Source: Oxalobacteraceae bacterium (GTDB taxonomy: Bacteria > Pseudomonadota > Gammaproteobacteria > Burkholderiales > Burkholderiaceae_D). Taken from it: a stretch of DNA of 35,973 nucleotides. Each line of letters opens with the position of its first letter. Position 1 is the first letter of the stretch. Shown in pieces: positions 1-23,425 of this stretch. The DNA lies in NCBI GenBank assembly GCA_003132085.1, contig PKWO01000089.1:16941-52913 (forward strand), read 5' to 3'. The position numbers were made by a program, and so were the translations under genes. The notes below the pieces were generated by a model, which was not told where the DNA came from, made no database searches, and was given only the letters and a program-made list of their open reading frames with translations.

Positions 1-1
1 T

Positions 2-661
2 GTCAACTATCAACTCGCCGGCCACCAAATCGGCACTTGGATGGCTGAGCAAATCGGCAAAAAAGGTAACGTGCTTGTGGTGGAAGGAATTCCGGGAACA
101 TCCGGATCAGACTCGCAGGACCGCGGCGTAAAGTCGGGACTTGCAGCCTATCCCGACGTGAAGATCGTCGGTGATGTTGCCGGCATGTGGACCGATCAGG
201 TTGCCCAGGCCGAAGTCCAGAAGTGGCTTGCCACCCATCCGGGTCAGTTGGATGGGATCGTCGTGCAGTCTGCAGCTGAGCTTGGCGTCTTGCGGGCGAT
301 GCAGCAATCCAACCGTCCGATGGTTCCGATTGCGATCGGTGGCGAGAGTGGAGCGCTGTGTTATTGGCGCAAACATCCCACGTTCGTTAGCGCCGCAATT
401 CAGACATGGCCGCCCGGCGACGACGTGGAGCTAATGTGGAACATCATGATTCGCACCTTGGAAGGTCAAGGTCCGAAGACGCAATCAATATTGGTCGATC
501 CAGTCAAGCTCACTATCGATGATATCAACAAGGCCATACCCGACAAGTGCAGCGAGGATTCGGACAAGTGGCTAAACGTCGGAACGGCCAAGTGGGGCAG
601 CAAGACCTATCTGGATCAGTTCTTCCTGCGTCCAGCCGATCCAGAGAAGTTTAAGCATTAA
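2..661 (+). CDS. Periplasmic sugar-type ABC substrate-binding protein, 5' end cut by the window edge
   Basis: The reading frame is open from nt 2, with no stop before the ATG at 41. The translation (GNVLVVEGIPGTSGSDSQDRGVKSGL...DGIVVQSAAELGVLRAMQQ) looks like the second lobe of Peripla_BP/LacI-type sugar-binding proteins. It is followed on the same strand by a double ATPase and two permeases. Confidence 0.7.
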   Translation, partial: VNYQLAGHQIGTWMAEQIGKKGNVLVVEGIPGTSGSDSQDRGVKSGLAAYPDVKIVGDVAGMWTDQVAQAEVQKWLATHPGQLDGIVVQSAAELGVLRAMQQSNRPMVPIAIGGESGALCYWRKHPTFVSAAIQTWPPGDDVELMWNIMIRTLEGQGPKTQSILVDPVKLTIDDINKAIPDKCSEDSDKWLNVGTAKWGSKTYLDQFFLRPADPEKFKH

Positions 662-735
662 CTCTCTTCCAAAACCAAAAGGCCGAGCGTAATTTAATTT
701 TGCCGCTCGGCGTGCTGAAATGGAGGAAGGATCAA

Positions 736-780
736 ATGATGCTTTTTCCCTGGCAAGTAAATCAGTATTCAATCAGGTAA
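736..780 (+). other. Candidate 14-codon leader-type mini-ORF (MMLFPWQVNQYSIR)
   Basis: GGAGGAAGG at 722-730 lies 5 nt before ATGATG at 736. The stop TAA is at 778-780, 2 nt before the stem-loop at 783-808. It could be a chance ORF. Confidence 0.2.
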
Positions 781-782
781 AC

Positions 783-808
783 CGGGCAACGCCACAAGGT
801 GTTGCCCG
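783..808 (+). promoter_or_regulatory. Stable GC-rich stem-loop in the binding-protein/ATPase spacer (candidate mRNA stabiliser or attenuator)
   Basis: cgggcaacgcc / acaa / ggtgttgcccg forms an 11-bp stem (one G-U pair) with a 4-nt loop. No U-run follows on the + strand. A weaker 8-bp hairpin lies at 682-689/704-711. Confidence 0.4.
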
Positions 809-991
809 AGGCTACCTACACACAACAGAATTGAAGCATGATGACTTGATCGCGTGGACCGGATGAGCAATTTCACCAGATCCAACAATGGAATATTCCG
901 GCATAACGATCAGCACCCGTCGCGCTGAATTTTTGTAAATAACTCTTAATGGTAAGGCCTCCTCGGAGTCCGATTATATGAACAACTTGAC

Positions 992-3499
992 TTGTTTGCT
1001 GGGATGTCGTTGCCTGTCGCACCACATGGCGCGACCGATAGCGCTCCACAAACAAACCTTTGCAGCACAATCAGTACTGTTCAATTCTTAACCGATACAA
1101 CCGTGACTACCGATAACCTTTCGCGTCCCCAGATAGAAGGTGCCACAGAGCATGCCTCGGCGGTGCCTGTTGCCACTGCAGGCGGCATCGCCGTTTCGGG
1201 TGTGCATAAATCTTTTGACGTGACGAAAGCACTCAATGGCGTCACGTTTAGCGCGTCGTTAGGTGAAATTCACGCGATCGTAGGAGGTAACGGATGCGGA
1301 AAGAGCACTTTGGCGAAAGTTATTTCGGGTGTAATCCCAATCGATGCTGGCCAGGTATCGGTCCTTGGTCACACGCCAACCACACCGCACGAGGCGCGAG
1401 CGCATGGAATTGCCACCGTCTTTCAGGAAGTGTTGGTCGCAGATGAATGTTCGATTGTCGAAAATCTATTTCTTGGCTCGGACAGTCTGTTGTCACGGTC
1501 CTTGCCGACCATGGAGAAGCTCAAGGCCGCAAAATTGCTGATGGCCGAATTGACGGGCGAAGCGATCGATCCTGAAACCCTGGTCGGGACGCTACCTCTC
1601 GGCATCAAACAGTGGATCACGATTGGCCGTGCGCTCTTAACCAAGCCAAAGGTGCTGATTTTAGACGAATCATCTGCTGCTCTTGATCTCGATTCAACCG
1701 AAAGGCTCTTCGCGAAGATGCGCGAATTGCGTGATCAGGGATCGGCCATCATTATCGTAACGCATCGAATCGCCGAACTGATCCGCATTTCCGATAGAGC
1801 CACCGTTCTTAGGGACGGTCGAGATGTCGGAGTGCTCGAAAAAAAAGACATCACTGAAAAGAATCTGCTAAGGCTAATGACAGGCAAGGAAGAAACGCAT
1901 GCAATATCGCGCTCCGCAGTTGAAAAGGTTCTGCATGCAGAAGTTGTATTGAAGGCAGAAAATCTGAAAATTTGGCCGAGCAGCAAAGAAATCGATTTTC
2001 GTCTCCACAAGGGTGAGATATTAGGAATTGCAGGACTTGATGGTCAAGGACAGAGCGAATTCGTCCGAATCCTGGCAGGTGTTGATAAGGCGATTCACTC
2101 TGAGCCGATGGTGGCGCGTCGCACTGGAGGCTACGCCAACATCATGGGTCTCGTCGATGCGGTCGAATATGGTGTCTCCTATGTCTCAGGCGATAGAAAG
2201 CGCGAAGGGATTTTCGCGAATCTGAGTATCTTCGAAAACCTGCTGATGCCGCTGTACCGGCGCAAGGCAAGAGGCGGAAAACTTGGGATTATCGACTGGA
2301 GCGTGTTGTCAGGCGTGTTTGATTGGGAGGTGGAGCGGCTCTCTATAAGAATGGGCGATCGCAGCAACAAGATCACGTCACTTAGCGGCGGCAATCAACA
2401 GAAAGTGCTGATCGGACGAGCATTTGCCTTGAATCCCAACATCCTCGTTCTCAACGACCCTGCGCGCGGCATTGATGTCGGTGCAAAAGGCGAGCTATAT
2501 GGTCACTTGAAAGACTTTGCAGCGACGGGAAAATCTGTTGTCTACATGTCTAGCGAGATTGAGGAGTTCGTCGGTTTCTGCTCGCGTGTGATCGTGTTCC
2601 GGAACGGCAGTATTTTTGATGAATTTTCCGGCAGCGAGATTGAGCCGGCTGGCATTCTTGAAGCAATGTTTGGACAGGCCAGAGGATTGAAACATTACCA
2701 AGCCGATGTGGAGCCTGGGAAAGGGACAGACAGCATGAAGATCGTGGAATTCAATAAAGATAATAATGATTCAGGCCTGAGTGACAAGAACTCATGGAAA
2801 TCGGCAAAGAGCGCCTATCCGCAATATGACGCCGGCGTAAAAACATCGGCCAACGCGCCTGGCGCTATGCCAAGCAGACCCGAGCTGAGTTCTATCCCAA
2901 GCAAAGCAAATAGCTTGGTCGAGGTTGATAAAAACTCTTGGAAATCGGCGAAAAGTGCCTATCCGCAGTTTGATATAGATGAAAGGACATCGCGGAATGA
3001 ACCTGAATTTTCCCATCAAGGCCCTGCGCAAAGAACAGCAGGTTCAGGAAATTTTCCGAGCAAAGAAAACAATAATTCTGACGTAAGCGATAAGCATTCG
3101 TGGAAATCCGCTAAAAGCGCGTACCCGCAGTTTGATTCTGCCGCAACGCCATTAGGAAACGCGCAAAATGTTGCGTATCAAGATTCCGCCGAAAGAAGGA
3201 ACGGGCAAAGTAGTGCGCCGAGCCTAGGTGACCAGAACTCCCGGTCCGGCTTGCTGGGAAATTCAGGGAAGACCGACGAACGTGCAAGTGGCGGCATTGG
3301 GAACATCAAGATTGTCGAGTTCGACAAACCGCCCGTCTACAACAATGCCAGTAGCAGCGCGAAGCAGCGCGAGCGCATCGAAGCCGATGATTTCAACGAA
3401 AAGGTAAAATATGAAAGCGCTATCGGGCGCGATGCCCAACGCGGACACATCAAGATCGTTGAATTCGACAATCTGAGCAGTAAGCGGACGAAAGCATGA
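992..3499 (+). CDS. Sugar-type (CUT2) ABC transporter ATP-binding protein with two fused nucleotide-binding domains and a ~265-aa non-ATPase C-terminal extension
   Basis: NBD1 has Walker A GGNGCGKST and Walker B VLILDESSAALD. NBD2 has the degenerate P-loop GLDGQGQSE typical of RbsA/MglA-like proteins, the signature LSGGNQQK and Walker B ILVLNDPARGID. The start is uncertain (TTG 992, ATG 1004 or GTG 1105), and none has a clear SD. The ATPase part ends near aa 565-570. Confidence 0.85.
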   Translation: MFAGMSLPVAPHGATDSAPQTNLCSTISTVQFLTDTTVTTDNLSRPQIEGATEHASAVPVATAGGIAVSGVHKSFDVTKALNGVTFSASLGEIHAIVGGNGCGKSTLAKVISGVIPIDAGQVSVLGHTPTTPHEARAHGIATVFQEVLVADECSIVENLFLGSDSLLSRSLPTMEKLKAAKLLMAELTGEAIDPETLVGTLPLGIKQWITIGRALLTKPKVLILDESSAALDLDSTERLFAKMRELRDQGSAIIIVTHRIAELIRISDRATVLRDGRDVGVLEKKDITEKNLLRLMTGKEETHAISRSAVEKVLHAEVVLKAENLKIWPSSKEIDFRLHKGEILGIAGLDGQGQSEFVRILAGVDKAIHSEPMVARRTGGYANIMGLVDAVEYGVSYVSGDRKREGIFANLSIFENLLMPLYRRKARGGKLGIIDWSVLSGVFDWEVERLSIRMGDRSNKITSLSGGNQQKVLIGRAFALNPNILVLNDPARGIDVGAKGELYGHLKDFAATGKSVVYMSSEIEEFVGFCSRVIVFRNGSIFDEFSGSEIEPAGILEAMFGQARGLKHYQADVEPGKGTDSMKIVEFNKDNNDSGLSDKNSWKSAKSAYPQYDAGVKTSANAPGAMPSRPELSSIPSKANSLVEVDKNSWKSAKSAYPQFDIDERTSRNEPEFSHQGPAQRTAGSGNFPSKENNNSDVSDKHSWKSAKSAYPQFDSAATPLGNAQNVAYQDSAERRNGQSSAPSLGDQNSRSGLLGNSGKTDERASGGIGNIKIVEFDKPPVYNNASSSAKQRERIEADDFNEKVKYESAIGRDAQRGHIKIVEFDNLSSKRTKA
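2789..3136 (+). repeat. Three in-frame 42-nt imperfect direct repeats encoding [N/H]SWKSAKSAYPQ[Y/F]D
   Basis: The copies are at 2789-2830, 2933-2974 and 3095-3136. The peptide is nearly identical in all three, but codons differ at third positions (TCA/TCT/TCG, GCA/GCG/GCT, AGC/AGT/AGC, TAT/TAT/TAC, CAA/CAG/CAG, GAC/GAT/GAT). A second triplicated motif, KIVEF[N/D], is at 2738-2752, 3308-3322 and 3452-3466. Confidence 0.9.
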
Positions 3500-3550
3500 T
3501 GATCATGAATTCACGCACTTTTCACAATTTTACATCGACGGTGAGCGAAC

Positions 3551-5263
3551 TTGGCTGAGGTCAGTGTGAAAGCACCATCTTCGTCGACCAACATGTATCT
3601 GTTGGTCCCGATTCTATTGCTTTTCCTTTTACTCATCGTAGCTGTGCTCAGAAGCCCCAATCTGATTTCTAGTGCCGGTATCGGCAGCGCCATCATCGTG
3701 ATGACGCCTCTCGCGCTGGCAACTTATGCTCTGATGGCAGTTGCGATCGCTGGACGCGGGACGGTGGATCTCTCTGTCGGCCCCCTGATTGGCTTTATCA
3801 ACGTGACTCTGGTGCAGCTGTACGGAGCAGATTTCATCACTTCGCCCCTCGCGTTCTTTGCGTATGCGATTGCAGTGGGTATCGCATATCATCTGATTAT
3901 GGGGCTGATCATCGTCTTTGTCCGGGTTCAACCGATCATCGTTTCGCTTAGCGGCTACCTGGCGCTCTCCGGCTTGAATCTCGTCATTCTGCCGCGACCG
4001 GGCGGAAGTGCACCAGAATGGATGCTACCTTGGGGTCTCGGGACATCGATTTTTTCCCCGATACTGGTTATTCTGGTCCTTAGTACAGGCGGCTGGCTGT
4101 TATTTACCAGAACCGCTTTTTATGGGCATTTGCGATTGATGGGGTCGGACGAGCGGTCTGCCTATACCAGCGGTGTCAGGATTTACATCGTACGTCTCGG
4201 CGCACACTGCATTTCCGGCATCTTTAGCGCACTCGCGGCGTTGACGTTTACCGCACTGATCGGTTCCGGCGATCCGACGCAGGGTACCACCTACACGCTG
4301 ATCGCAGTAACCGCCCTTGTATTGGGCGGCACCAGTCTTGCCGGCGGTCGCGGCGGTGTAATTGGGTCGCTGTTAGGCGCAGTGAACATTTTTCTCATTG
4401 GTTATGTGCTGGCGACGTTCAGCTTCGGGACGGTGCAGGGATTCGTGACAGACCTCGCCTACGGCTTCATCCTCGTGATCTCGTTGCTATTGACGGTTGC
4501 GCTGCCGTACCTTCAGTCACGTATCCGAAATGTTTCACCGTTTCTGGTTTTCGTGGTCCTCTCGCTTCTGTTTATGGGCGTGATTCTTCACGCGACTTAC
4601 GATTACTCGAAGCCTGCGCCTGTGGTGACAGTTGCAACGGTGGTGCCTCAAGCTGAGGCCACTGTGAGTGTGGACGAGGCGACCACTACTACCCCGCCGG
4701 TAACCGAAAACTTGGCTCCAGTTGCGACTGCAACGGAAGCGCCAGTTCTAACGACTGACATTGCGACGACAGCTCAAACACAAACTATGGCACCAGCTCC
4801 AATTACAGAAAACGCGACAACTACTGCGCCCGACTCAGCAAAGGCGACTCCAGCGGAGGCAGCCATTCCCTCCGCTGCTGAGGCAGCGACCAAGTCCCCT
4901 GCTCCGGCTCCTGGCGCAGCTATCTTACTAGCTCCCGCCGCGCCGATTGTGGCGACAGAGAATTGGGCGGCCTCCAGCGGATTCATCTTTGAAAAAATCG
5001 AAGATCAGCAAGGAATTGGCAAGTCGGAATATGCCAGACCGGTCACCTTTGCGTCGATAATAATGATTTCCCTGTTGATCCTGGCTAGGGCCATCGTGTC
5101 CCAGACCATGAAGCGCAAGATGACCGCGCTCATTTGGGTCATCATTACGGTTCTATTAGCATTGGGCGTCTACGTTCTGGCGACCTGGATGGTTGAACGA
5201 TCACCGCCTAGTTCCGGAGGTCGGTCTTCCCCATCTTCCACCGCAACCGGAGTCCAGTCATGA
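3551..5263 (+). CDS. ABC sugar permease (RbsC/BPD_transp_2 type) with a Thr/Ala/Pro-rich C-terminal extension and two extra predicted TM helices
   Basis: The multi-TM core contains GRGTVDLSVGPLIGF and GGTSLAGGRGGVIGS motifs typical of ribose-type permeases. The low-complexity TAP-rich stretch is at about 4610-4960. It is followed by the hydrophobic segments FASIIMISLLILARAIV and ALIWVIITVLLALGVYVLATWMV. The start could be TTG 3551 or ATG 3593. Confidence 0.8.
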   Translation: MAEVSVKAPSSSTNMYLLVPILLLFLLLIVAVLRSPNLISSAGIGSAIIVMTPLALATYALMAVAIAGRGTVDLSVGPLIGFINVTLVQLYGADFITSPLAFFAYAIAVGIAYHLIMGLIIVFVRVQPIIVSLSGYLALSGLNLVILPRPGGSAPEWMLPWGLGTSIFSPILVILVLSTGGWLLFTRTAFYGHLRLMGSDERSAYTSGVRIYIVRLGAHCISGIFSALAALTFTALIGSGDPTQGTTYTLIAVTALVLGGTSLAGGRGGVIGSLLGAVNIFLIGYVLATFSFGTVQGFVTDLAYGFILVISLLLTVALPYLQSRIRNVSPFLVFVVLSLLFMGVILHATYDYSKPAPVVTVATVVPQAEATVSVDEATTTTPPVTENLAPVATATEAPVLTTDIATTAQTQTMAPAPITENATTTAPDSAKATPAEAAIPSAAEAATKSPAPAPGAAILLAPAAPIVATENWAASSGFIFEKIEDQQGIGKSEYARPVTFASIIMISLLILARAIVSQTMKRKMTALIWVIITVLLALGVYVLATWMVERSPPSSGGRSSPSSTATGVQS

Positions 5264-6633
5264 ACAAGTCGACTGTACCAGCACTCAAATGGGTCGGATT
5301 GGTACTAGCAGTGCTCATTTCCGGCCTAGGAGCCGGCCTCGGATTCTGGCAGAGAGTTCCTGCACAGTACGTAATTTTTTACGCCGCAGCGACATTTGCG
5401 TTGGTTGTATGGGTATGGAATAGCTACCTGCCGCGTTGGAGCGGTGACGCCGATGAGGCTGGTGCCAAAGGTGTAGGCCGGCGTGGGCGCAACGGCTTCA
5501 AAACCTTCCTGGTACGCTTCCGTTCCATCCTCGCTAGTTTGGTTCTGCTGGTGGCCGCATTCTTGATCGCCTCGGTGACAGTGACGGGATTTTTCTCGCT
5601 GATGAACGTCATCACCTTTTTGATTCTCGCGGCCCTCATCATTTTCGCCACACTGGTAAGCAAGCTATTTGTCGACAACCGGAGCGCCTTCATTGGGCTT
5701 ACCGTGCTCATCGGTATGTTCGCCATTGGATCCCTTAACATAGACGGCTTTTTTTCGACCGCAAACGTCAAATCGATGCTGGTGTTCGCATCATTTCTCG
5801 GCATTGCCTGCATTGGCCAGACGTTGGTGGCGCTACTGGGTGGACTGGATCTGTCGATTCCGTTTGTCATCGGATCGTCAAATGTTGGTTTGCTCTATCT
5901 GCTAGGGCTAGGTGTCCCATCTTGGCTCGGCGTCGTCATCATTCTTATTCTGGGTGCTGGTATCGGTTTCATCAATGGCATCCTCAGCTTTAGATTGCAG
6001 GGGCAGGCCTTGATCTTGACTTTGGGCGTCGGATTTGCGATTTCCGGCGGAACGCAAATACTGACTAGCATTGGTACCGCATACGGGGGCAACGTGTTCG
6101 GAGCGGTGCCGGACTGGCTAAAGAACCTGGCGGCAATGAACGGCAGCACGTTTGGCCTGGACGTTCCACCGGTTATTTTCATCTGGATAATATTAGCCGC
6201 GGTCCTGATCTACGCCATGAAGAATTCAGTCTATGGACGTTATATGTATGGGCTCGGAGGCAACCGTACCTCGGCACAAAGGTTGTCGATCTCGGAGCGT
6301 CGGTACTGGGTCGGTGCGTTCGCCATCAGCGGCTGTGTCTCCGCCTTCACCGGCGCACTATTGCTGGGTTGGAGCGGCGGCGGCTTTATCGGTGTTGGCC
6401 AACCCTATCTGTTCATGACGTTGGCTGCTGTCGTGATCGGCGGTACGTCCTTGCTCGGCGGCTATGGCGGCTATGGGTTTACCGTCATTGGCGTCCTCGT
6501 GCTTCAGGTGCTTACATCGTTTCTGATCGGTATAGGTCTTAAGTATGAATGGCAACAATTCATCTTTGGCATTCTGATCCTGCCAATGGTGGCCTTGTAT
6601 GCGCGCTCACCGCATATCCGCACCCAGATTTGA
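5260..6633 (+). CDS. Second ABC sugar permease (RbsC type) with an ~85-aa N-terminal extension carrying extra TM helices
   Basis: It overlaps the upstream permease by ATGA (5260-5263). The core contains LLGGLDLSIPFVIGSS and IGGTSLLGGYGGYG motifs. The N-terminal segments WVGLVLAVLISGLGAGLGFW and YVIFYAAATFALVVWVW precede the canonical permease start. Confidence 0.8.
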   Translation: MNKSTVPALKWVGLVLAVLISGLGAGLGFWQRVPAQYVIFYAAATFALVVWVWNSYLPRWSGDADEAGAKGVGRRGRNGFKTFLVRFRSILASLVLLVAAFLIASVTVTGFFSLMNVITFLILAALIIFATLVSKLFVDNRSAFIGLTVLIGMFAIGSLNIDGFFSTANVKSMLVFASFLGIACIGQTLVALLGGLDLSIPFVIGSSNVGLLYLLGLGVPSWLGVVIILILGAGIGFINGILSFRLQGQALILTLGVGFAISGGTQILTSIGTAYGGNVFGAVPDWLKNLAAMNGSTFGLDVPPVIFIWIILAAVLIYAMKNSVYGRYMYGLGGNRTSAQRLSISERRYWVGAFAISGCVSAFTGALLLGWSGGGFIGVGQPYLFMTLAAVVIGGTSLLGGYGGYGFTVIGVLVLQVLTSFLIGIGLKYEWQQFIFGILILPMVALYARSPHIRTQI

Positions 6634-6797: not shown

Positions 6798-7499
6798 ATG
6801 AGTACTAAATTACTTCAGGCTACCGATGTGGCAAGCGGCACATTTTTGCTTGTTTTCACCGGAATGGTTGCTGCGACCGTATTGCTCATTATGGGGACTG
6901 CGTGGGTCTCAAGGAGGTGGAAGCTTCCGGTCGCTCTATCTGGCATCGTTACGTTGGTTGCGGCGATGTATTACTTCTATGTTAGCAATATCTGGATAGA
7001 GTCAGGGCAAATGCCGATCGTCTATCGCTATATCGATTGGTTCATTACCATTCCGCTGCAGGTGGTGACGCTTTACTTCTTCATCAGAGTCATCTCGTCA
7101 CTATCAACCTGGCTATTTTGGCGCCTGCTGGTGGTCTCTGTGGTGATGGTGCTTGCGAGATATATGGGGGAAGCTGGTCTCATGCATCCTACATTGGGTT
7201 TTCTGATTGGCCTTATTTCCTGGCTCTATATACTGGGCGAGGCGTTCTTTGGCCGGCTTGGCGAGCTTAGCGCAAAGAGTTCCAACTACGCCGTGCACAC
7301 AGGTTTTTTCTGGTTGCGCTTAATCGTAACGGTCGGCTGGGCGATTTACCCATTGTGTTACTTCATCGCGGGCTTTGCGGGCGGGGTTGAGGTACAGAAG
7401 TTGAACATCGTCTACAACTTGTCTGACTTTGTAAATCAGATTGCGTTTGGATTGGTGATATTGACGACTGCAATGAAAGACTCGGCGTCCTCAAAATGA
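6798..7499 (+). CDS. Microbial rhodopsin (proteorhodopsin/xanthorhodopsin-like) homolog lacking the Schiff-base lysine (Gln214), 233 aa
   Basis: There are seven hydrophobic segments. Helix C reads YRYIDWFITIPLQVVTLYF (compare proteorhodopsin (PR) FRYIDWLLTVPLLICEFYL). Helix D reads LLVVSVVMVLARYMGEAGLM. Helix F reads VGWAIYPLCYF. Helix G reads VYNLSDFVNQIAFGLVIL (compare PR IYNLADFVNKILFGLIIW). GGAG at 6788-6791 lies 6 nt before ATG 6798. The GTG at 6750 in the ORF track adds 16 non-homologous residues and has no SD. Confidence 0.85.
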   Translation: MSTKLLQATDVASGTFLLVFTGMVAATVLLIMGTAWVSRRWKLPVALSGIVTLVAAMYYFYVSNIWIESGQMPIVYRYIDWFITIPLQVVTLYFFIRVISSLSTWLFWRLLVVSVVMVLARYMGEAGLMHPTLGFLIGLISWLYILGEAFFGRLGELSAKSSNYAVHTGFFWLRLIVTVGWAIYPLCYFIAGFAGGVEVQKLNIVYNLSDFVNQIAFGLVILTTAMKDSASSK

Positions 7500-7521
7500 A
7501 GCTATCGATGATTCTACAGCA

Positions 7522-7547
7522 GATGAAACGCCTGCAATCGTTTCGTC
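7522..7547 (+). terminator. Weak terminator-like hairpin after the opsin gene
   Basis: gatgaaacg / cctgcaat / cgtttcgtc forms a 9-bp stem (one G-U pair) with an 8-nt loop, followed by aatttaag. The U tract is poor, so at best this is a partial terminator. Confidence 0.3.
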
Positions 7548-7653
7548 AATTTAAGAGCATGACACGGACCGTCTCTGAAGCGACCCGGCATGAAATATAC
7601 GCGAATGCGCAGGCAACGGCGCTAACTTTGAAACTGGTTTGGAGGGTTAAGGC

Positions 7654-9348
7654 ATGAACGGTGCGGACATCATTGCGATTATCATTCTGGCTGCAATTGT
7701 CATTGCAGTTATTGTTTACCTGTTGCACTGGCTTTATCGGCACTCATCGAAGGATCTTTCCTTTGTGCGTACCGGATTGGGCGGTGAAAAGGTAGTGATG
7801 GGGGGCGGCGCATTGGTGCTTCCCATCGTCCATGACCTGACGGAAGTCAGCATGAATACCCTGCGGATTGAAGTCCGAAGGGCTGCGGAGAAATCTCTGA
7901 TCACAAGAAACCGCATGCGGATCGAGGTAAGCGTTGAATTTTTTGTGCGGGTTATTCCTTCCGCAGAGGCAGTCGCTGCAGCGGCACGCACCTTGGGTAA
8001 TCGAACGCTGAACCCGGAAAGCCTTAGAGACCTGGTGCAGGGTCGGTTCGTAGATGCGATGGGCGCCGTGGCCGCCAAGATGACGATGGAAGAAATCCAC
8101 GAAAACCGGAGCGACTACATCAAGGGCGTCAAGGCGCAAGTTGCCGATGCGCTTACGGCGAATGGTCTTGAACTTGAGGCAGTCTCGCTCACTAGCCTGG
8201 ATCAAACGGATATGAAGCTATTCAATCCGTCGAATGCTTTCGACGCCGAAGGCCTGACTCGTCTGACCGAAGAAATCGAGACGCGCAAGAAGAAGCGTAA
8301 CGACATCGAGCAGGACACGATGATCGCTATTCGAAAGAAAAACCTGGAGTCCGAGAAACTCGCATTGATCATCGATAAGGAGAGCGAGTATGCACGCTTG
8401 GAGCAGGAAAGCGAGGTCGCGATGCGACGTGCTCAGCAGCGCACTGAAGTGGCACTTGAAAAGACCGATCGCGACCGGGACATTGAGGAAGCGCACATCC
8501 GTTCGAAAGAGCTAGTGGATAAGAGTCGCATTCTGCAGGAACGAGCGATTGATGCGGAGCGCATCTTGCGCGAGCAGGAGACCGAGAAGCTGGAAATTCA
8601 GCGCCGCAAGACGCTGGAGATGGAGGAGCAGGATCGGGTGATAGCAGTAGCGGTAAAGTCTAAGACACAGTCGGACGCTCAGGCAGCCGCCGAAACCGCT
8701 CGCGCGCTATTGGTCGAGGCACAGGAAAAAGTCATCACCGTGCGAGAAACGGAAATAGCCGAACGGCGGAAGCTCATCGAATTGATCGACGCAGCACAAC
8801 AGGCGGAGCGCGAGGCGATCAAGCTTACGACGAATGCCAGCGCCGAGAAGGCGGCGGCGGTCGATCGGGCGGAGGCCGACAATGCGGCAGCTAAGGCTGC
8901 GGAGTATCGCTACGAGGTGGATGCCGAAGGTCGACGCAAGCTGAACGAGGCCGAGAACATGCGGTCCGACGCGAGTCGCCGCAGTTCCTTTAACGCCAAG
9001 CTGATCGAAAATCTGCCTTTGATCATCCGCGAAAGCGTCAAGCCGATGGAAAATATCGAGTCTATAAAGATTCTCCAGGTTGATGGTCTCCCGGGGCTTA
9101 GCGGCATGCAGCATTCTGGCGGACAGGGTGGCGATCATGCCAACGACGGGGATCCTCGAACGGGTAGTCTTGCGGACAACGTGGTGAATTCCGCCTTGCG
9201 TTACCGAGCCCAGGTTCCCTTTGTCGATAACTTGTTGCAGGAAATCGGCATGTCGTCCAACGCCATCAGCAGCCTAGGAAGTCTGGGCGGCCTTGGAAAC
9301 ATCGGGTTGCCTGATGGCAGTCGTCCGAAGGACGATAAAAAGCACTAA
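7654..9348 (+). CDS. Flotillin-family SPFH/Band-7 protein (YqiK/FloT-like)
   Basis: It has an N-terminal membrane anchor (IIAIIILAAIVIAVIVYLL). The SPFH core reads FVRTGLGGEKVV...LPIVHDLTEVSMNTLRIEV...MTMEEIHENR. A long Glu/Ala/Arg-rich coiled-coil region follows. GGAGGG at 7641-7646 lies 7 nt before the ATG. Confidence 0.85.
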   Translation: MNGADIIAIIILAAIVIAVIVYLLHWLYRHSSKDLSFVRTGLGGEKVVMGGGALVLPIVHDLTEVSMNTLRIEVRRAAEKSLITRNRMRIEVSVEFFVRVIPSAEAVAAAARTLGNRTLNPESLRDLVQGRFVDAMGAVAAKMTMEEIHENRSDYIKGVKAQVADALTANGLELEAVSLTSLDQTDMKLFNPSNAFDAEGLTRLTEEIETRKKKRNDIEQDTMIAIRKKNLESEKLALIIDKESEYARLEQESEVAMRRAQQRTEVALEKTDRDRDIEEAHIRSKELVDKSRILQERAIDAERILREQETEKLEIQRRKTLEMEEQDRVIAVAVKSKTQSDAQAAAETARALLVEAQEKVITVRETEIAERRKLIELIDAAQQAEREAIKLTTNASAEKAAAVDRAEADNAAAKAAEYRYEVDAEGRRKLNEAENMRSDASRRSSFNAKLIENLPLIIRESVKPMENIESIKILQVDGLPGLSGMQHSGGQGGDHANDGDPRTGSLADNVVNSALRYRAQVPFVDNLLQEIGMSSNAISSLGSLGGLGNIGLPDGSRPKDDKKH

Positions 9349-9436: not shown

Positions 9437-9847
9437 ATGGCCGTCATTGAAGAAACTGAGAAGAGACTAGCAGTCATCACGAACTGGGCGTTTTTCGGGT
9501 CGTTCGGGTCAAGCTTCATATTGTCTGGGTTTAGCGATGGCGATCTGGTGATGGGCCAAATTGGATTTGCGGTACTTGCACTGGGCTTTATCGCTCACGT
9601 CATCATCAACCGCATTTTCGATGCAGGCTTCAGCAAGGGCGAAGTTGCATTTGGGTTGATCGTCTTCGGTGTTTCAGTACTTAGCTTCGTTGGAAGCTGG
9701 CTATTTGATCCACACTTCGGCGGCGTGAATATCGTCATCGGTCTGGCCGGTTTTAGTGAGATCGTTGCATGCCTAATCGTCTATGTCGTTATCAAATTCG
9801 GGCTCAAAGGTTCCTTTACCATGATCCACCAGCTGCGTAACCATTAA
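9437..9847 (+). CDS. Small integral membrane protein (about 4 TM), unknown family; possible symporter accessory subunit
   Basis: The translation is hydrophobic, with four helix-length segments. The stop lies 12 nt before the TTG start of the symporter gene. I do not recognise it as DUF485/DUF4212 or NfeD. Confidence 0.5.
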   Translation: MAVIEETEKRLAVITNWAFFGSFGSSFILSGFSDGDLVMGQIGFAVLALGFIAHVIINRIFDAGFSKGEVAFGLIVFGVSVLSFVGSWLFDPHFGGVNIVIGLAGFSEIVACLIVYVVIKFGLKGSFTMIHQLRNH

Positions 9848-12034: not shown

Positions 12035-12424
12035 ATGGCTATAGACATTAAAAGCTGGGCAAACAAGTTCAAGTCCATGTCCGACAATGATCAGACTATT
12101 GCGGCGATGGCCAAGTATTACACTTGTACGTTCATGTGGGACATGGGCGACAAGAAGGTGATCATCGAGATGCACGACGGCAAGGTGAAAAATATCAACA
12201 TCGATCCCGCTCCTCTTGACGCCTACGATTTCGCACTTCGTGCCGGCGCACAGACGTGGCGGGAGTTTGGACAACCCATTCCAAAGCCAATGTTCCATGG
12301 CATCTGGGCGGCAAGTTTTCGCGAAGATCTAAAGCTCGAGGGGAACATCCTGGTAATGATGCAAAATCTTAGAAACTTCACCGTACAGTTTGAACTGCTG
12401 CGTAAATGCGGCGTACCGGTCTAA
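12035..12424 (+). CDS. SCP2 sterol-carrier-like small protein
   Basis: The 129-aa pattern (...FALRAGAQTWREF...LKLEGNILVMMQNLRNF...) resembles the SCP2 lipid-binding fold. AAGGAG lies just upstream of the ATG. Confidence 0.45.
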   Translation: MAIDIKSWANKFKSMSDNDQTIAAMAKYYTCTFMWDMGDKKVIIEMHDGKVKNINIDPAPLDAYDFALRAGAQTWREFGQPIPKPMFHGIWAASFREDLKLEGNILVMMQNLRNFTVQFELLRKCGVPV

Positions 12425-12478: not shown

Positions 12479-13330
12479 ATGGTTCGTCATTCGCCCGTAA
12501 CAGGCCGCTACGTCACCATCGATGTCGATGGTATGGAATATAAAGTTTTCTATCTGCAAAACGGGAAGGGAGTTCCGCTGGTTTGCCAACACACGGCTGG
12601 TTGCCATAATCATCAATGGCGCGGACTACTCGAAGATGAGGAAATTACAAAGAACTATAACGTCATTGCTTATGACCTCCCGCGCCATGGTAAGTCAGAC
12701 CCACCACATAACAGCGAATGGTGGAAAACAGAGTACAAGCTCACTGCAGACCACTTTGTGAATTTCATCGTGAAATTTTGTGACGCGCTTGAGCTGCGCG
12801 ACCCCATTTTCATGGGCTCATCTTTTGGCGGTAATGTTGCCCTGCAATTGGCATTGCGTCGTCCAGATCGCTTCAAGGCCGTTATCCCGGTTGAGGCCGG
12901 TGATTACGCGCCCGGATTTTATCTGGACTGGTGGCGGCATCCACATGCAAACGCGGCGCAAGTTTGCGCCAGCGGTGTGTGGGATTTGATGGCCCCGCAA
13001 TCCCCCGATATGGACCGATGGCTGACTTGGCACTACTACACGCAAGGGGCGGAGGCATTCAAGGGTGACCTTTACTTCTATTCGGTAGATCATGATCTTC
13101 GAGAAGAACTTGAAAATATCGACGGTAGGCGGTGCCCGGTGGTCATGATGACGGGGACCTATGACTATTTAACGCCGCCGGAGGTGACCGAAAATACCGC
13201 TCGACGCATCAAGGGAGGCGTCTACATCGAAATGACCGACATTGGACACTTTCCGATGAGCGAAAACTACCCCGTCTTTAAGGTTTACTTGAAAGAGGCG
13301 CTGAGAATTATCCGGGAGCGGAAGGGTTGA
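12479..13330 (+). CDS. Alpha/beta-fold hydrolase (esterase or enol-lactonase-like)
   Basis: The nucleophile elbow is GSSFGG. An HG-type oxyanion region (QHTAGC) is present. The C-terminal part carries an Asp (TGTYDYL) and a His (IGHFP), consistent with a Ser-Asp-His triad. Confidence 0.75.
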   Translation: MVRHSPVTGRYVTIDVDGMEYKVFYLQNGKGVPLVCQHTAGCHNHQWRGLLEDEEITKNYNVIAYDLPRHGKSDPPHNSEWWKTEYKLTADHFVNFIVKFCDALELRDPIFMGSSFGGNVALQLALRRPDRFKAVIPVEAGDYAPGFYLDWWRHPHANAAQVCASGVWDLMAPQSPDMDRWLTWHYYTQGAEAFKGDLYFYSVDHDLREELENIDGRRCPVVMMTGTYDYLTPPEVTENTARRIKGGVYIEMTDIGHFPMSENYPVFKVYLKEALRIIRERKG

Positions 13331-13448: not shown

Positions 13449-14000
13449 ATGAAATTGGACATTACCGATGCGTCACCATTTGTAAGCAAGATGGTTCATC
13501 TACACGAATGCGCTGTGTTTGATTCGCCAGAGCCAGCATTGGACCCGATGATAGATATTCAGACGAATCGGGACGAGATGATTCTTTACGCGCTTCAGTT
13601 GCGCCCTTGCTACCATCGTATCGGTCGCATTATCGGCCAACTGGGCGGGCTTTTCATTCTTGCCCAGGCAAGTGGTCGGTTTGAGGTCGATTTTGGGGCA
13701 GTAGCGGTGGTAGTTGAGCAGGTAGAGCAAACCGTTGCCGCAATCCACGCAGTCAAGGTTCCAAAGCAAACTGAGCGACACCATGAACGCCTGGTGAAGG
13801 CGCTTGGCTTGGTGGCGTCTGTTACCGCGGAATTTGGCGATTCGATGCGGACGCCGGAGCGCATACGCGAACGCTTAGGTTTATGGACGAAACGTCTGAA
13901 GAACGCGAATGCGATGGTAAGTGGTGCTGCAGTCGACCGGCTCGGTCTAATGCCGGTTGATTTTAGTCATGCATGTTGTAACTGCGGTGTAGGCGATTAA
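13449..14000 (+). CDS. Hypothetical protein with a C-terminal Cys cluster (HACCNCG)
   Basis: The ORF is 183 aa, co-directional with its neighbours and sits between the two hydrolase genes. I recognise no family. Confidence 0.4.
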   Translation: MKLDITDASPFVSKMVHLHECAVFDSPEPALDPMIDIQTNRDEMILYALQLRPCYHRIGRIIGQLGGLFILAQASGRFEVDFGAVAVVVEQVEQTVAAIHAVKVPKQTERHHERLVKALGLVASVTAEFGDSMRTPERIRERLGLWTKRLKNANAMVSGAAVDRLGLMPVDFSHACCNCGVGD

Positions 14001-14064
14001 GAAATAACTCACAAGATTTGACTGCGTTGCCGACGTAAATTTAACTTATAACAGGATATTGAAA

Positions 14065-14952
14065 ATGGCTGAATATTCAATCTGGGTAATGGAATACTCA
14101 TATGTTGTTAATTGTGCCGTCAGCAGCGTAATTTACGGTGCACACAATCAAGGTATTCGTAAGTTACCCTACTGCTATGCGCTGATTAAAAGCGATGATC
14201 ATATTGCGATGGTTGACGTCGGTTTCAACCAAAAGGAATACGGCGCTTATCTGGGCGAAAAATTCGGCGTCGAAAACTGGCATTCGCCAAAAGAAGTATT
14301 AGCGCAAGCGGGCATTAGACCGGGCGATGTCGATTCGATATTTATTACGCATGCCCATTTCGACCACATGGGAAACATAGGCGATTTCCCTAACGCGACT
14401 TTTTATATTCAGGAGCGTGAGCTGTCGAAATGGATCTGGGCGATGTCTTTGCCGGATCGGATGCGCTACATGATGGTGGCAACCGATCCCTCTGACGTAC
14501 TCCGCGCAGTCGATTTGGCGCGGCAAGGCCGCCTGGTGTGTGTTCCAGGCGATATGGAAAATGTAATTCCGGGAATTGATTTGCATGCGGCGTACGATAC
14601 GCATACCTATGGGTGCCAATGGGTACACATCCGCAATGACATGAAGCCAAAATCTCAAGATAGCTGGGTGATGGCAGGGGATCTAATTTACGTTTATGAA
14701 AATCTGCAAAGCGATGGGGATCTCGTTGGTGTGGAGAAGATGTATACGCCGGTAGGCTTGGCGCTGGGTAGCATTACTAACCTGGTCATGACTACCGAAG
14801 AAATCATGAAGGCGGTCGGTTATGAAGTCAAGCGTGTGATTCCCGTGCATGAAGAGCGACTTAAGGACACGTTTCCTTCCAGGATAACCAAGGATGGACT
14901 TCGAATTAGTGAGATATGTCTTGCCAGCGGCCATAAATCCCTTGTGTACTAA
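14065..14952 (+). CDS. Metallo-beta-lactamase-fold hydrolase (N-acyl-homoserine-lactonase-like)
   Basis: The zinc motif is ITHAHFDHMGN (HxHxDH). AGGA at 14053-14056 lies 8 nt before ATG 14065. The ORF track starts two codons earlier, at TTG 14059. Confidence 0.75.
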   Translation: MAEYSIWVMEYSYVVNCAVSSVIYGAHNQGIRKLPYCYALIKSDDHIAMVDVGFNQKEYGAYLGEKFGVENWHSPKEVLAQAGIRPGDVDSIFITHAHFDHMGNIGDFPNATFYIQERELSKWIWAMSLPDRMRYMMVATDPSDVLRAVDLARQGRLVCVPGDMENVIPGIDLHAAYDTHTYGCQWVHIRNDMKPKSQDSWVMAGDLIYVYENLQSDGDLVGVEKMYTPVGLALGSITNLVMTTEEIMKAVGYEVKRVIPVHEERLKDTFPSRITKDGLRISEICLASGHKSLVY

Positions 14953-15144
14953 CCATTGAACCTTTGAATGGAATATGTGGCTGGCAGTCGGTAGGGAAAT
15001 TTTGAATTTTACGAGCAGACTGATGAGAAAGAATAGGCTTGATTGGGGTGCCGTCGCGATGAAGGAAATCATCGAGGGTACTGTGCAGTCGATTGTCTGC
15101 CTATAGAGAGTTTTGCTTCGGGCAATACTGGTTGGAGGAAAATC

Positions 15145-15357
15145 ATGGATGACGTGAAGCACCCGACAAAAGAGCAGGTTCGTCTTTATATGGAACAGCG
15201 CCAAGCTGAGCGAGAAGTACCGCCTCCAATTGAAGAGTTCCGTCGTCGGTTGAAGTGGAATTTTGAATCTACTCGGGCCACCGCTGCTTATCTGAATATG
15301 GCATGCCGAAATGGTTTGTCAGGTCGCGAGTCAACACTAACTTCCGGCAGCCGTTAA
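15145..15357 (+). CDS. Small hypothetical protein (70 aa)
   Basis: GGAGG at 15134-15138 lies 6 nt before ATG 15145. Translation starts MDDVKHPTKEQVRLYMEQRQAEREVPPPIEEFRRRL. I recognise no family, and it may not be expressed. Confidence 0.3.
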   Translation: MDDVKHPTKEQVRLYMEQRQAEREVPPPIEEFRRRLKWNFESTRATAAYLNMACRNGLSGRESTLTSGSR

Positions 15358-15441
15358 GCAGCACCTACATTAGCTTTCCCGAAAAAATGACACGATTTAG
15401 CTGAACACGATTGAAACGGCCTAACAAAAAAGGAACTCTCG

Positions 15442-16596
15442 ATGTCTCAATTTACGTTTGAAACTTCACCCAAGATCATTTGCGAGCAAGGCGGCGCTCG
15501 ACGGCTGGGCGAAATTGCCCGGGGGCTAGGTGCCAGCCGCGTCTTCATCGTCACCGACCACGGCCTGGTGCAGGCAGGCGTCATCAACGGCGCACTGGCA
15601 GCGCTGGCGGAATCCGGTGTTGAGGTCACGTTGTTTTCCGACGTCTTGGCCGATCCACCGGTGGCGAGTGTGCTGGCGGCAGTGGCCGCGGCGCGTGCGG
15701 CCGGAGTGGATGCGGTGGTGGGCTTGGGAGGCGGTAGCTCGATGGATACAGCCAAATTGGTGGCGTTGCTGGCGCGTACGCCGCAGCCGTTGGACGATAT
15801 CTATGGCATCGGTTTGGCACGGGGCGCCCGGTTGCCGTTGATCCAGGTGCCGACCACCGCAGGAACCGGTTCCGAAGTCACGCCAATCTCGATTCTTACT
15901 ACTCTGACCCACGAGAAAAAAGGCGTCGTCTCGCCCTTGCTTTACCCTGACGTAGCGCTGCTCGATGCCGAGCTTACCCTCGGGTTGCCGCCGGCGATTA
16001 CCGCCATGACAGGGGTGGATGCGATGGTCCATGCGATTGAATCATTCACCAGCCGTGTGAAGAAAAATCCGCTTTCAGATGCGCTGGCGATCAAGGCACT
16101 GAAACTGCTCTACGCAAACCTGTCTGTGGCCGTCACCGACGGCGGCGACCCCAACGTACGGGAGAACATGCTGCTCGGTTCGCTGTTCGCAGGAATGGCT
16201 TTCGCCAATGCGCCGGTGGCTGCCGTGCATGCGCTCGCGTATCCGCTCGGTGGGCACTACCATTTGCCGCACGGCCTATCGAACTCGTTGGTATTGGGAC
16301 CGGTGCTCGAGTTCAACCGCACGGCGGCAAGCGCGTTGTATGCTGAACTCGGGCGCGCCATTCTACCCGAGCAGTACTCAGCCGGCGATGACGCGGTTGC
16401 CACCGCTTTCATTGCTGCGATACGCAAGCTGGTGGCGGCGATGCCCTACCCGCAAAGGTTGCGCGACGCTGGCGTAACAGAGGCCGATTTGCCCCAACTT
16501 GCACGCGACGTCATGAACATCCAACGCTTGCTGGTGAACAATCCGCGCGATGTTGCTTACGAGGACGCGCTGGCAATTTATCAGGCTGCCTACTGA
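15442..16596 (+). CDS. Iron-containing (group III) alcohol dehydrogenase; possible 4-hydroxybutyrate dehydrogenase
   Basis: The GGGSSMDTAK motif and the conserved His cluster (VHAIESF...HALAYPLGGHYHLPHG) are present. It lies immediately upstream of the succinate-semialdehyde dehydrogenase gene. Confidence 0.8.
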   Translation: MSQFTFETSPKIICEQGGARRLGEIARGLGASRVFIVTDHGLVQAGVINGALAALAESGVEVTLFSDVLADPPVASVLAAVAAARAAGVDAVVGLGGGSSMDTAKLVALLARTPQPLDDIYGIGLARGARLPLIQVPTTAGTGSEVTPISILTTLTHEKKGVVSPLLYPDVALLDAELTLGLPPAITAMTGVDAMVHAIESFTSRVKKNPLSDALAIKALKLLYANLSVAVTDGGDPNVRENMLLGSLFAGMAFANAPVAAVHALAYPLGGHYHLPHGLSNSLVLGPVLEFNRTAASALYAELGRAILPEQYSAGDDAVATAFIAAIRKLVAAMPYPQRLRDAGVTEADLPQLARDVMNIQRLLVNNPRDVAYEDALAIYQAAY

Positions 16597-16695
16597 AGAG
16601 TGCGCCCGACAAAAAAAACGTTACCGATTCTCGACCGGCTGTACGACCGCGATAGAGCCGCAGCCAAAATATAAACCTTTACTTGGAATAATTAC

Positions 16696-18156
16696 ATGAT
16701 GCAACTAAAAGACCCTTCGCTGCTGCGGCAGCAAGCCTATCTGAACGGCGAGTGGTGCGACGCGGACAATGGCGAAACTTGCCCGGTTACTAATCCGGCT
16801 ACCGGCGAAATGATCGGTACGGTGCCGCAAATGGGCGCGGATGAAACTCGGCGGGCGATCGCGGCAGCCGACAGTGCCTGGCGCGGTTGGCGCGCTAAAA
16901 CCGGCAAGGAGCGCAGCGCCATCCTGCGCAAGTGGAATGATCTGATGCTGGCTAATGCCGACGATTTGGCAATGATCATGACGGTCGAGCAAGGCAAGCC
17001 GCTGGCCGAATCCAAGGGCGAAATCGGCTACGCAGCATCTTTTATCGAATGGTTTGCCGAAGAAGCCAAGCGCGTCAATGGCGACACCATGCAGTCCCCT
17101 TGGGCGGATCGCCGCATTGTCGTCATCAAACAGCCGATTGGCGTGTGCGCCGCCATTACACCGTGGAATTTCCCGTCGGCGATGATCACTCGCAAAGCCG
17201 GTCCGGCGCTAGCGGCAGGTTGTCCGATGGTATTGAAGCCGGCGATGGCGACGCCGTACTCGGCGTTGGCTTTGGCGGTATTGGGCGAACGCGCCGGAAT
17301 ACCGGTCGGCGTATTCAACGTCTTGACCGGATCGTCGCGCGCGATCGGCGGCGAGATGACATCCAACCCGACCGTACGCAAGCTGACCTTCACAGGTTCG
17401 ACCGAGGTCGGACGCATGCTGATGCAACAATGCGCGCCGACCATCAAGAAGCTGTCGCTGGAACTGGGCGGCAACGCGCCGTTCATCGTGTTTGACGATG
17501 CCGACCTGGATGCGGCGGTCGAGGGCGCCATCGTTTCCAAATACCGCAACGCCGGTCAGACTTGCGTGTGCGCCAACCGTTTGTATGTGCAAGACGGCGT
17601 ATACGACGCGTTCGCGAAAAAGCTGGTGGCTGCAGTCGAAGAACTCAAGGTCGGCAACGGCGTCGAGTCCGGCGTCACGCAAGGGCCGCTGATCGACGGC
17701 GCCGCAATCGAAAAAGTGGAACAACACATTGCTGATGCGATCGCGAAAGGCGGACGGCTGCTGACCGGCGGCAAGCGCCATGCGCTCGGGCATAGTTTCT
17801 TTGAACCCACCGTGATCGCCGATACCAGTTCCAATATGCTGGTGGCGCGCGAAGAAACCTTTGGGCCGCTGGCCCCGTTGTTTCGCTTCAAGACCGATGC
17901 CGAAGCGATCGAGTTGGCGAACGATACCGAATTCGGTCTTGCCAGCTATTTCTATTCGCGCGACATCGGCCGCATCTGGCGCGTCGCGGAAGGTCTGGAG
18001 AGCGGGATGGTTGGCATCAATACCGGCCTGATATCGAATGAAATCGCGCCGTTTGGCGGCGTCAAGCAATCCGGGCTTGGGCGCGAAGGCTCGAAGTATG
18101 GGATGGACGATTATCTGGTGATCAAATATCTGTGCATGGGTGGGTTGGATATGTAA
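16696..18156 (+). CDS. gabD: NAD(P)-dependent succinate-semialdehyde dehydrogenase
   Basis: The protein belongs to the aldehyde dehydrogenase family. The N-terminus (LLRQQAYLNGEWCDADNGETCPVTNPATGE) is GabD-like. The catalytic region reads LELGGNAPFIVFDDADL...NAGQTCVCANR. The start could be ATG 16696 or 16699. Confidence 0.8.
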   Translation: MMQLKDPSLLRQQAYLNGEWCDADNGETCPVTNPATGEMIGTVPQMGADETRRAIAAADSAWRGWRAKTGKERSAILRKWNDLMLANADDLAMIMTVEQGKPLAESKGEIGYAASFIEWFAEEAKRVNGDTMQSPWADRRIVVIKQPIGVCAAITPWNFPSAMITRKAGPALAAGCPMVLKPAMATPYSALALAVLGERAGIPVGVFNVLTGSSRAIGGEMTSNPTVRKLTFTGSTEVGRMLMQQCAPTIKKLSLELGGNAPFIVFDDADLDAAVEGAIVSKYRNAGQTCVCANRLYVQDGVYDAFAKKLVAAVEELKVGNGVESGVTQGPLIDGAAIEKVEQHIADAIAKGGRLLTGGKRHALGHSFFEPTVIADTSSNMLVAREETFGPLAPLFRFKTDAEAIELANDTEFGLASYFYSRDIGRIWRVAEGLESGMVGINTGLISNEIAPFGGVKQSGLGREGSKYGMDDYLVIKYLCMGGLDM

Positions 18157-18672: not shown

Positions 18673-18854
18673 TCGCCAAGGGCCAGTCGGCCTAACGGAT
18701 GCGGTCATTCGATTTTAATTTTTCCAATTATTCCGGCGACCGTCCGCCACCGTCAGCAATTTGGGTTAAGCGGAAATTGCCGGCTCTTCGGTCGACTGAC
18801 TGCAACACCTAAGGACCGGCCAGTCGGATCATAAAAAGTTCGCGCAAGCAACGG

Positions 18855-23416: not shown

Positions 23417-23425
23417 CTCTATTTC

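Follow-up and report, generated by a model that had tools for sequence, protein, structure and literature searches.

A stretch of 35,973 nucleotides from contig PKWO01000089.1 (hereafter the window) carries, at 6798..7499, an opsin gene whose product lacks the Schiff-base lysine of proteorhodopsins. Judged by its sequence and its modelled fold, the 233-amino-acid (aa) protein is a flotillin-associated rhodopsin (FArhodopsin, FAR) of the lysine-less subclade, in a family described in 2023 that was known to have members without lysine and without retinal. The explanation preferred for it as a whole, with a probability of roughly 60%, is that it is a lysine-less FArhodopsin without chromophore which acts as a light-independent partner of the flotillin encoded next to it. 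The functional part of that explanation, namely that the opsin is the integral-membrane partner of a flotillin scaffold and helps to organise a microdomain for the co-encoded transporters, is put forward tentatively and at rather less than an even chance. The features on which the argument turns are the following.

6798..7499, + strand: lysine-less FArhodopsin of the R-type subclade defined below, 233 aa (PF01036, PDB, AlphaFold2 (AF2), Foldseek and neighbour-joining tree)
7035..7070, + strand: D80/T84/T91 'DTT' motif, corresponding to proteorhodopsin D97/T101/E108 (alignments)
7158..7160, + strand: codon AGA, Arg121 (Gly in proteorhodopsin, pocket-blocking Glu120 in the flotillin-associated rhodopsin PsFAR; Arg in 119 of 120 homologs)
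7188..7247, + strand: helix E, residues 131-150, LGFLIGLISWLYILGEAFFG, the most conserved FAR segment and a candidate protein-protein interface
7437..7439, + strand: codon CAG, Gln214, in the Schiff-base lysine column (HMMER alignments; Lys in none of the 120 closest homologs)
7500..7653, + strand: opsin-flotillin spacer, 154 nt, with no terminator on the + strand
7654..9348, + strand: flotillin, 564 aa, with an N-terminal transmembrane helix, SPFH domain and flotillin coiled-coil domain (Pfam)

The opsin reading frame is uninterrupted and GGAG stands 6 nt 5′ of its ATG, in keeping with the intact frame and good Shine Dalgarno sequence reported in the original prediction. Its product matches PF01036 (Bac_rhodopsin) with an E-value of 1.8e-26. 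In a sequence search of the PDB the top matches are 9r23 and 9r21, both PsFAR (E 7e-65, 222 bits), ahead of the best proteorhodopsin (E 6e-53, 183 bits) and far ahead of the xanthorhodopsins (E 1e-7 to 1e-9). The AF2 model has seven transmembrane helices (pLDDT 93.8, pTM 0.91), and its top Foldseek match is again PsFAR (9r21_A, TM 0.93). A neighbour-joining tree of 233 columns, with few proteorhodopsin outgroups, splits the flotillin-associated sequences including PsFAR from the proteorhodopsins in 99 of 100 bootstraps. (A search of a representative library of 1.84 billion proteins yielded mainly fragments and proteorhodopsins at 30-45% identity, and added few outgroups.) It is this best match, the split in the tree and the adjacent flotillin gene that together point to a FArhodopsin. 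The protein shares with that family the seven-helix fold, the downstream flotillin, the tree position, the DTT motif and the FAR gene cluster, and it departs from proteorhodopsins in having Gln214 for the Schiff-base lysine, Thr91 for Glu108 and Tyr58 for His75.

FArhodopsins were defined by their constant pairing with flotillin and by DTT, DTL or DNI motifs (Haro-Moreno et al. 2023, mSystems, PMC10308929). Freshwater members with Gln, Thr, Leu or Arg at the Schiff-base site have been reported (PMC10308929), and an opsin with Gln at that site is itself already in the literature. The original prediction had likened the protein to green proteorhodopsin. The likeness of fold stands, while the idea of a proteorhodopsin changed by one substitution gives way to a separate, old FAR clade. 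Its account of the context was right in finding no retinal or carotenoid biosynthesis gene, and there is none among the main reading frames of the window, but the flotillin gene 154 nt downstream was overlooked, and for that reason the FAR identity was missed.

Pairwise HMMER alignments set the query YNLSDFVNQIAFG against YNLTDFLNKIIFG of PsFAR, YNLADFVNKILFG of the proteorhodopsin PsPR and YNLADLINKAAFG of blue proteorhodopsin, with Q214 opposite the lysine each time. The helix-G motif reads DFVNQIAFG in the query, DFLNKIIFG in PsFAR, DFVNKILFG in PsPR and DLINKAAFG in blue proteorhodopsin. As these are alignments to solved structures, Gln214 therefore occupies the Schiff-base lysine column, as had been predicted; the comparison with the family PF01036 that had also been proposed gives the match cited above. 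Across the 120 top database homologs (identity 58-100%) the Schiff-base column holds Q in 101, L in five, E in five, R in four, V in four, T in one and K in none. The other substitutions listed earlier, the D-T-T motif, Tyr58 at the position of proteorhodopsin His75, Gln88 at position 105 and the nearby K227, all hold in the alignments as well. The DTT motif varies within the subclade. The proton-donor position, Thr91 in the window, is never Glu among the 120 homologs, and the counter-ion Asp80 is poorly kept: residue 80 is D in 44, A in 38, G in 26 and E in eight, and most clade members have A, G, V, L or M in place of the aspartate.

Compared with green and blue proteorhodopsin (PDB 7b03, 4jq6, 4kly) the protein has the same fold, some 38-44% identity, and the residues R77, D80, W81, T84, D210, N213 and GWAIYP in common; Gln at proteorhodopsin position 105 is also found in blue proteorhodopsin. 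It differs in the absence of the Schiff-base lysine, of E108 (Thr91) and of His75 (Tyr58), in the exchange of Gly for Arg121 and in its flotillin and transporter context. The earlier view that much of the retinal pocket is kept is thus right for the residues just named and wrong as a general statement, given the arginine at the site of the beta-ionone ring. In loci L007-L086 the charges at 77, 80 and 214 appear to covary in some subclades: Arg214 occurs mostly with His77 and Gly80 in Hyphomicrobiales-type loci, Glu214 with Ala80, and Leu214 with Gly80. This suggests, at the level of sequence, a polar network that is kept but rearranged.

Since CAG is one base from AAG, an error in sequencing had to be considered, as had a fresh inactivating mutation that would make the gene a nascent pseudogene of a normal proteorhodopsin; the original prediction carried a caveat to this effect. 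The exact opsin protein is present on 18 contigs, and at six loci from six different, independent samples the gene is identical in nucleotide sequence with CAG at codon 214. The nearest relatives, 91% and 85% identical, likewise have CAG. Lysine is absent from all 120 homologs down to 58% identity, and the E108 donor and His75 are replaced too. The ratio of nonsynonymous to synonymous substitution rates (dN/dS) is 0.055 in comparison with the 91% relative, 0.058 with the 85% relative and 0.01-0.13 for unsaturated pairs within the clade; substitutions in the FAR gene fall 19/8/80 by codon position. The opsin gene is intact and under strong purifying selection. The comparison of orthologs and of dN/dS which had been proposed to decide the matter has come out on the side of a conserved Gln, and the chance that CAG is an error or a fresh lesion is negligible.

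What may close the pocket can be approached through PsFAR, the FArhodopsin of a marine Pseudothioglobus, which is colourless although it keeps its lysine. Its pocket is filled by His84 and Glu120, and the retinal-free cryo-EM structure (PDB 9r21) has only small water-filled cavities; H84V alone does not bind retinal, and only H84V/E120G regains binding (Kovalev et al., bioRxiv 10.1101/2025.04.29.651185). The window opsin resembles PsFAR (43% identity) in being flotillin-associated, in having no proton donor and in carrying, at the ionone site of helix D, a residue that is both bulky and charged. The particular residues differ: PsFAR has Lys213, His84 (in the polyene channel), Ser54 and Glu120/Ala124 where the window protein has Gln214, Ile85, Ala55 and Arg121/Glu125. 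Position 121 lines the beta-ionone site. It is Gly in proteorhodopsin and Arg in all but one of the 120 homologs. In an alignment of 28 sequences neither Arg121 nor Glu125, which follows it by one helical turn (i+4), varies.

When one genome per species was scanned, 80 related loci were found, and their key columns sort into two types. The K/E type, which is PsFAR-like, has Ser55, His85, Glu121, Ala125 and Lys214 and accounts for nine loci. The R type, to which the window belongs, has Arg121/Glu125; its position 85 is aliphatic, and its position 214 is occupied by Q, R, L, E or T. The R-type and the K/E-type clades are each found in 100 of 100 neighbour-joining bootstraps. Arg121 goes with loss of Lys214 in all loci except L052. 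That locus (L052:9420-10088, from an uncultured Rhodospirillales metagenome-assembled genome, MAG) is the sole relative found with both Arg121 and Lys214; it is basal to the R-type clade and may be an evolutionary intermediate. From its position it would follow that the pocket was probably blocked first, by the change from Gly to Arg121, and that the lysine was lost later, whereupon position 214 would have changed freely, becoming Q, R, L, E, V or T. The K/E-type loci with both Lys and flotillin (L064-L067, L069, L072, L079, L080 and L083) are in MAGs that bear the labels Candidatus Poriferihabitaceae, Arenicellales, Chromatiales, Hyphomicrobiales, Rhizobiaceae and Rhodobiaceae, by label a wider range than the three marine taxa of the 2023 paper. 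The residue corresponding to PsFAR His84 is Ile85 in the window and Ile, Val or Met across the subclade, with no aromatic residue, so the claim that this position is aromatic in all FARs fails for the R type.

Because the lysine is missing and Arg121 is in place, the window protein would be expected to bind no retinal, pump no ions and sense no light. By analogy with PsFAR, in which H84V leaves Glu120 and there is still no retinal, the substitution Q214K alone is predicted to give no pigment; with Arg121 in the ionone site, that residue would also need to be removed. The prediction sets the R-type branch apart from Rh-noK, the other natural bacterial opsins without Schiff-base lysine with which comparison is apt. 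These are xanthorhodopsin-related, occur in tandem with a functional rhodopsin gene and pump again once the lysine is restored (PMC10308929; bioRxiv 10.1101/2025.04.29.651185). The window opsin is FAR-related and has no tandem rhodopsin, and its Arg121 predicts that restoring the lysine would not suffice.

The same residue weighs on the proposal that the protein still uses light, as a sensor or a pump, with retinal or a carotenoid derivative bound non-covalently. The conservation of R77, W81, D210, N213 and GWAIYP would suit it, and Haro-Moreno et al. (PMC10308929) left other carotenoid derivatives open. However, Arg121 is nearly invariant at the very site where Glu120 by itself blocks retinal in PsFAR, the counter-ion is mostly replaced in the clade and the donor position is never Glu. 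Pigment genes are absent from the window, and several related loci belong to MAGs or isolates with names suggestive of soil, groundwater, lichen or sponge sources. Light use of this kind is very improbable, and the non-covalent binding of retinal that had been entertained in the original prediction is unlikely in view of Arg121. All the evidence is in keeping with the other suggestion made there, that of an opsin without chromophore whose role does not depend on light.

The flotillin gene (PF15975 Flot, E 5.6e-35; PF01145 Band_7, E 2.4e-14) is itself under constraint, with a dN/dS of 0.045, and a flotillin lies directly 3′ of the opsin on the same strand in 83 of the 83 loci with downstream sequence. 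The spacer of 154 nt is within the range of 28-168 nt that most related loci have. Scans for promoters, terminators and Rfam families around the opsin gene gave nothing above chance and no RNA family. A 53-codon open reading frame at 7496..7657 (+ strand) was considered as a third gene between the two and rejected: its substitutions are spread 12/11/15 by codon position, its dN/dS is 0.45 and it is absent from distant loci, although the 91% and 85% relatives keep it open, with a 3-nt indel that preserves the frame. It overlaps the opsin stop codon (ATGA) and the flotillin start, and is conserved only at its 3′ end, which contains the flotillin ribosome-binding site.

Helix E is where conservation among the opsins is concentrated. 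Ten of its 20 positions are invariant across 82 flotillin-associated opsins, and only three invariant residues, L136, L146 and G147, all within it, depart from both of the proteorhodopsins used for comparison. This fits the speculation of Kovalev et al. (bioRxiv 10.1101/2025.04.29.651185) that helix E contacts flotillin.

The scheme proposed for the role is built on the lack of a + strand terminator, on the conservation of helix E and on the microdomain role suggested by both FAR papers (PMC10308929; bioRxiv 10.1101/2025.04.29.651185). The opsin would be co-produced with flotillin and probably, by analogy, form a pentamer like PsFAR. Without any need of light it would act as the integral-membrane partner, or the nucleus, of the flotillin scaffold, making contact through helix E, which is highly conserved and faces outward, and through the long helix G. 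The scaffold in turn would set up a microdomain for the co-encoded ATP-binding cassette (ABC) and sodium-solute transporters and the lipid-handling proteins. Several points weigh against the explanation preferred here. Kovalev et al. saw 'no obvious evidence' of adaptation to flotillin binding (bioRxiv 10.1101/2025.04.29.651185). Gene adjacency supports a functional link between FArhodopsin and flotillin, whose physical contact is proposed, and speaks for no specific mechanism. With a non-aromatic residue at the His84 site, blockage of the pocket would rest here on Arg121 and the missing lysine only. Finally, the window covers 36 kb of the genome, and a proteorhodopsin paralog or retinal synthesis genes may be present elsewhere in it.

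The last point leads to a published hypothesis for marine FARs, in which the opsin, as a subunit, regulates a proteorhodopsin whose gene lies elsewhere in the genome, and hetero-oligomers of the two in flotillin rafts tune its pumping of protons when light is dim. Every marine FAR carrier has a proteorhodopsin paralog (PMC10308929), and PsFAR and PsPR are both pentamers (bioRxiv 10.1101/2025.04.29.651185). The host and its relatives speak otherwise. The pyruvate carboxylase of the window is 89-90% identical to copies in Herminiimonas sp. CN, Glaciimonas sp. PCH181 and an Oxalobacteraceae MAG, and the window has a G+C content of 55%; on this sequence evidence the host is an Oxalobacteraceae-like betaproteobacterium, related to Herminiimonas and Glaciimonas, and no streamlined planktonic cell. 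A second rhodopsin is lacking from the window and, to a distance of 10 kb, from all 86 loci, and the surrounding cluster is one of transport and catabolism with no sign of phototrophy. The names of some carriers suggest soil, lichen, groundwater or sponge, settings in which dim-light pumping seems unlikely. The tuning of a distant proteorhodopsin is, for these reasons, decidedly unlikely in this organism.

The R-type module occurs in several records that do not carry a MAG label, those of Tistlia consotensis USBA 355, Lichenifustis flavocetrariae BP6-180914, Hoeflea alexandrii G21627-S1, Zhengella mangrovi X9-2-2 and Rhizobiales bacterium AFS031141. It occurs also in many MAGs, some of which point, by name only, to soil, groundwater, lichen or sponge. 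To count every FAR producer among the uncultivated microbes of aquatic habitats (Kovalev et al. 2025, bioRxiv 10.1101/2025.04.29.651185) therefore seems too narrow. The freshwater lysine-less FArhodopsins are like the window protein in having Gln at the Schiff-base site, a flotillin on the same strand, the DTT motif and, as neighbours, a symporter, an 'inner-membrane translocator', an alpha/beta-hydrolase and an Fe-alcohol dehydrogenase. However, the 2023 contigs were mostly unclassified and from aquatic, streamlined, uncultured bacteria, whereas the window is from an Oxalobacteraceae-like genome and its subclade, unlike the freshwater description, includes cultured isolates and MAGs with names suggestive of soil, lichen or groundwater. 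The invariance of Arg121 goes unmentioned in the accessible part of the text on the freshwater proteins (PMC10308929). What is added to the 2023 paper is modest: the tie between Arg121 and lysine loss, the cultivable and apparently non-aquatic carriers, and the extent to which the cluster is conserved. Published hypotheses on FArhodopsins centre on the ecology of the dim-light ocean and on uncultured streamlined bacteria. The lysine-less branch is old, strongly selected, tied to a transport and catabolic cluster, and present in ordinary cultivable heterotrophs as well as in MAGs that are non-aquatic to judge by name. This weakens light-related explanations and supplies tractable organisms in which to study a retinal-free role of opsin and flotillin.

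The published FAR cluster comprises a symporter, an inner-membrane translocator, an SCP-like protein, a hydrolase and an Fe-alcohol dehydrogenase (PMC10308929). When the proteins of the window were compared by tblastn with the 86 loci, the conserved order was substrate-binding protein, fused ABC ATPase, two permeases, FAR, flotillin, the small protein p136, the SSF symporter, and p129 with an alpha/beta-hydrolase. Often next in the cluster are p183 paired with a metallo-beta-lactamase-fold protein, an Fe-alcohol dehydrogenase and an aldehyde dehydrogenase. This conserved transporter and catabolic cluster of about 14 genes is syntenic across Alpha-, Beta- and Gammaproteobacteria. Its further members in the window are listed here.

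1..6633, + strand: CUT2-type (monosaccharide-like) ABC transporter (Pfam, NCBIfam; syntenic in 65-83 of 86 loci)
..661, + strand: ABC substrate-binding protein, cut by the start of the window
992-3499, + strand: fused double ABC ATPase
3551-5263 and 5260-6633, + strand: two ABC permeases
9437-9847, + strand: p136, small membrane protein with four transmembrane helices (syntenic in 49 of 86 loci)
9860-11878, + strand: sodium:solute symporter family protein (PF00474 SSF, TIGR00813; 77 of 86 loci)
12035-12424, + strand: p129, possibly SCP2-like, paired with the alpha/beta-hydrolase (71-72 loci)
12479-13330, + strand: alpha/beta-hydrolase (Abhydrolase_1; 71-72 loci)
13449..18156, + strand: p183, metallo-beta-lactamase-fold protein, Fe-alcohol dehydrogenase and aldehyde dehydrogenase (Pfam; 13-41 of 86 loci)

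The most conserved gene of the cluster is that for p129, a soluble protein of 129 aa found at 72 loci and always followed by the alpha/beta-hydrolase; its orthologs are 64-86% identical, compared with 46-70% for the opsin. The p129 of the window has no Pfam, NCBIfam or PDB match. Among 22 orthologs 12 match PF02036 (SCP2) weakly, and the SCP2 C-terminal motif is colinear with p129.

This protein bears on a further possibility, that the former retinal pocket has been re-used for another small ligand or that the opsin handles lipid, as a scramblase or as a binder of lipid or fatty acid together with p129. Rather than a passive partner in the scaffold, the opsin would then serve the adjacent transporters as chemosensor, gate or organiser of lipid. 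Besides the extreme conservation of p129 and its faint SCP2 likeness, the buried Arg121/Glu125 pair is conserved and the charges at 77, 80 and 214 covary in some subclades. A retinal-free proteo-opsin binds decanoate, as far as the available entry (PDB 8cnk) describes it, and light-independent scramblase activity is reported for a proteorhodopsin in the accessible part of another study (PMC10730872). Against this, p129 can be assigned to SCP2 only weakly (best E 0.022; hhalign probability 12.6% with an approximate human SCP2 query; pLDDT 42 for a single-sequence model of p129), and PsFAR shows only small water-filled cavities. Such re-use is possible, if unlikely. A more specific version is quite improbable: that R-type FArhodopsins are an opsin fold turned into a light-independent ligand- or lipid-binding subunit, in which Arg121/Glu125 would hold a small anionic or amphipathic molecule. 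The ligand might be, for example, the substrate of the cluster or a lipid delivered by p129, and the subunit would with flotillin assemble or gate the ABC and sodium-solute transporters. If true, it would be open to genetic tests, as the module is present in cultivable Tistlia, Hoeflea, Zhengella and Lichenifustis.

Apart from the partnership with flotillin that is preferred for the opsin, the cluster has some features of its own. The fused ABC ATPase ends in a C-terminal low-complexity tail of about 270 aa with three copies of 'DK(N/H)SWKSAKSAYPQ(Y/F)D' and three of '(M/I)KIVEF(N/D)'. In close relatives the ATPase is 835, 804 and 687 aa long, and tblastn matches at distant loci span about 500-550 aa, the tail being apparently unconserved there. 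Both permeases are much longer than is typical of CUT2 systems. The first, of 570 aa, has a Thr/Ala/Pro-rich linker of about 110 aa after the BPD_transp_2 core and then an extra hydrophobic helix; the second, of 457 aa, is extended at its N terminus by about 130 aa. The gene for p136, whose product has approximately four predicted transmembrane helices and no family match, lies between those for flotillin and the SSF protein, 12 nt before the symporter start, and a role for p136 as accessory symporter subunit or as flotillin partner is conceivable.

A truncated DDE_5 transposase fragment (18406-18834, + strand) comes right after the aldehyde dehydrogenase of the cluster, and the window opsin is 70% identical to the copy in a Rhodospirillaceae MAG as against 63% to that in an Oxalobacteraceae MAG (L048). 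The fragment and the closer Rhodospirillaceae copy hint, as features of sequence, that the FAR cluster moves horizontally.

Beyond the conserved FAR cluster, the region 19172-35925 (- strand) encodes the pyruvate carboxylase and apparent organic-acid and acyl-coenzyme A (CoA) catabolic genes. These include aconitase-family large and small subunits, a protein like phosphoenolpyruvate mutase or isocitrate lyase, an HpcH/CitE-like lyase and a GntR regulator, together with a family III CoA-transferase, an acyl-CoA dehydrogenase, a PrpD-like protein, an amidase, a MaoC hydratase and an MFS transporter.

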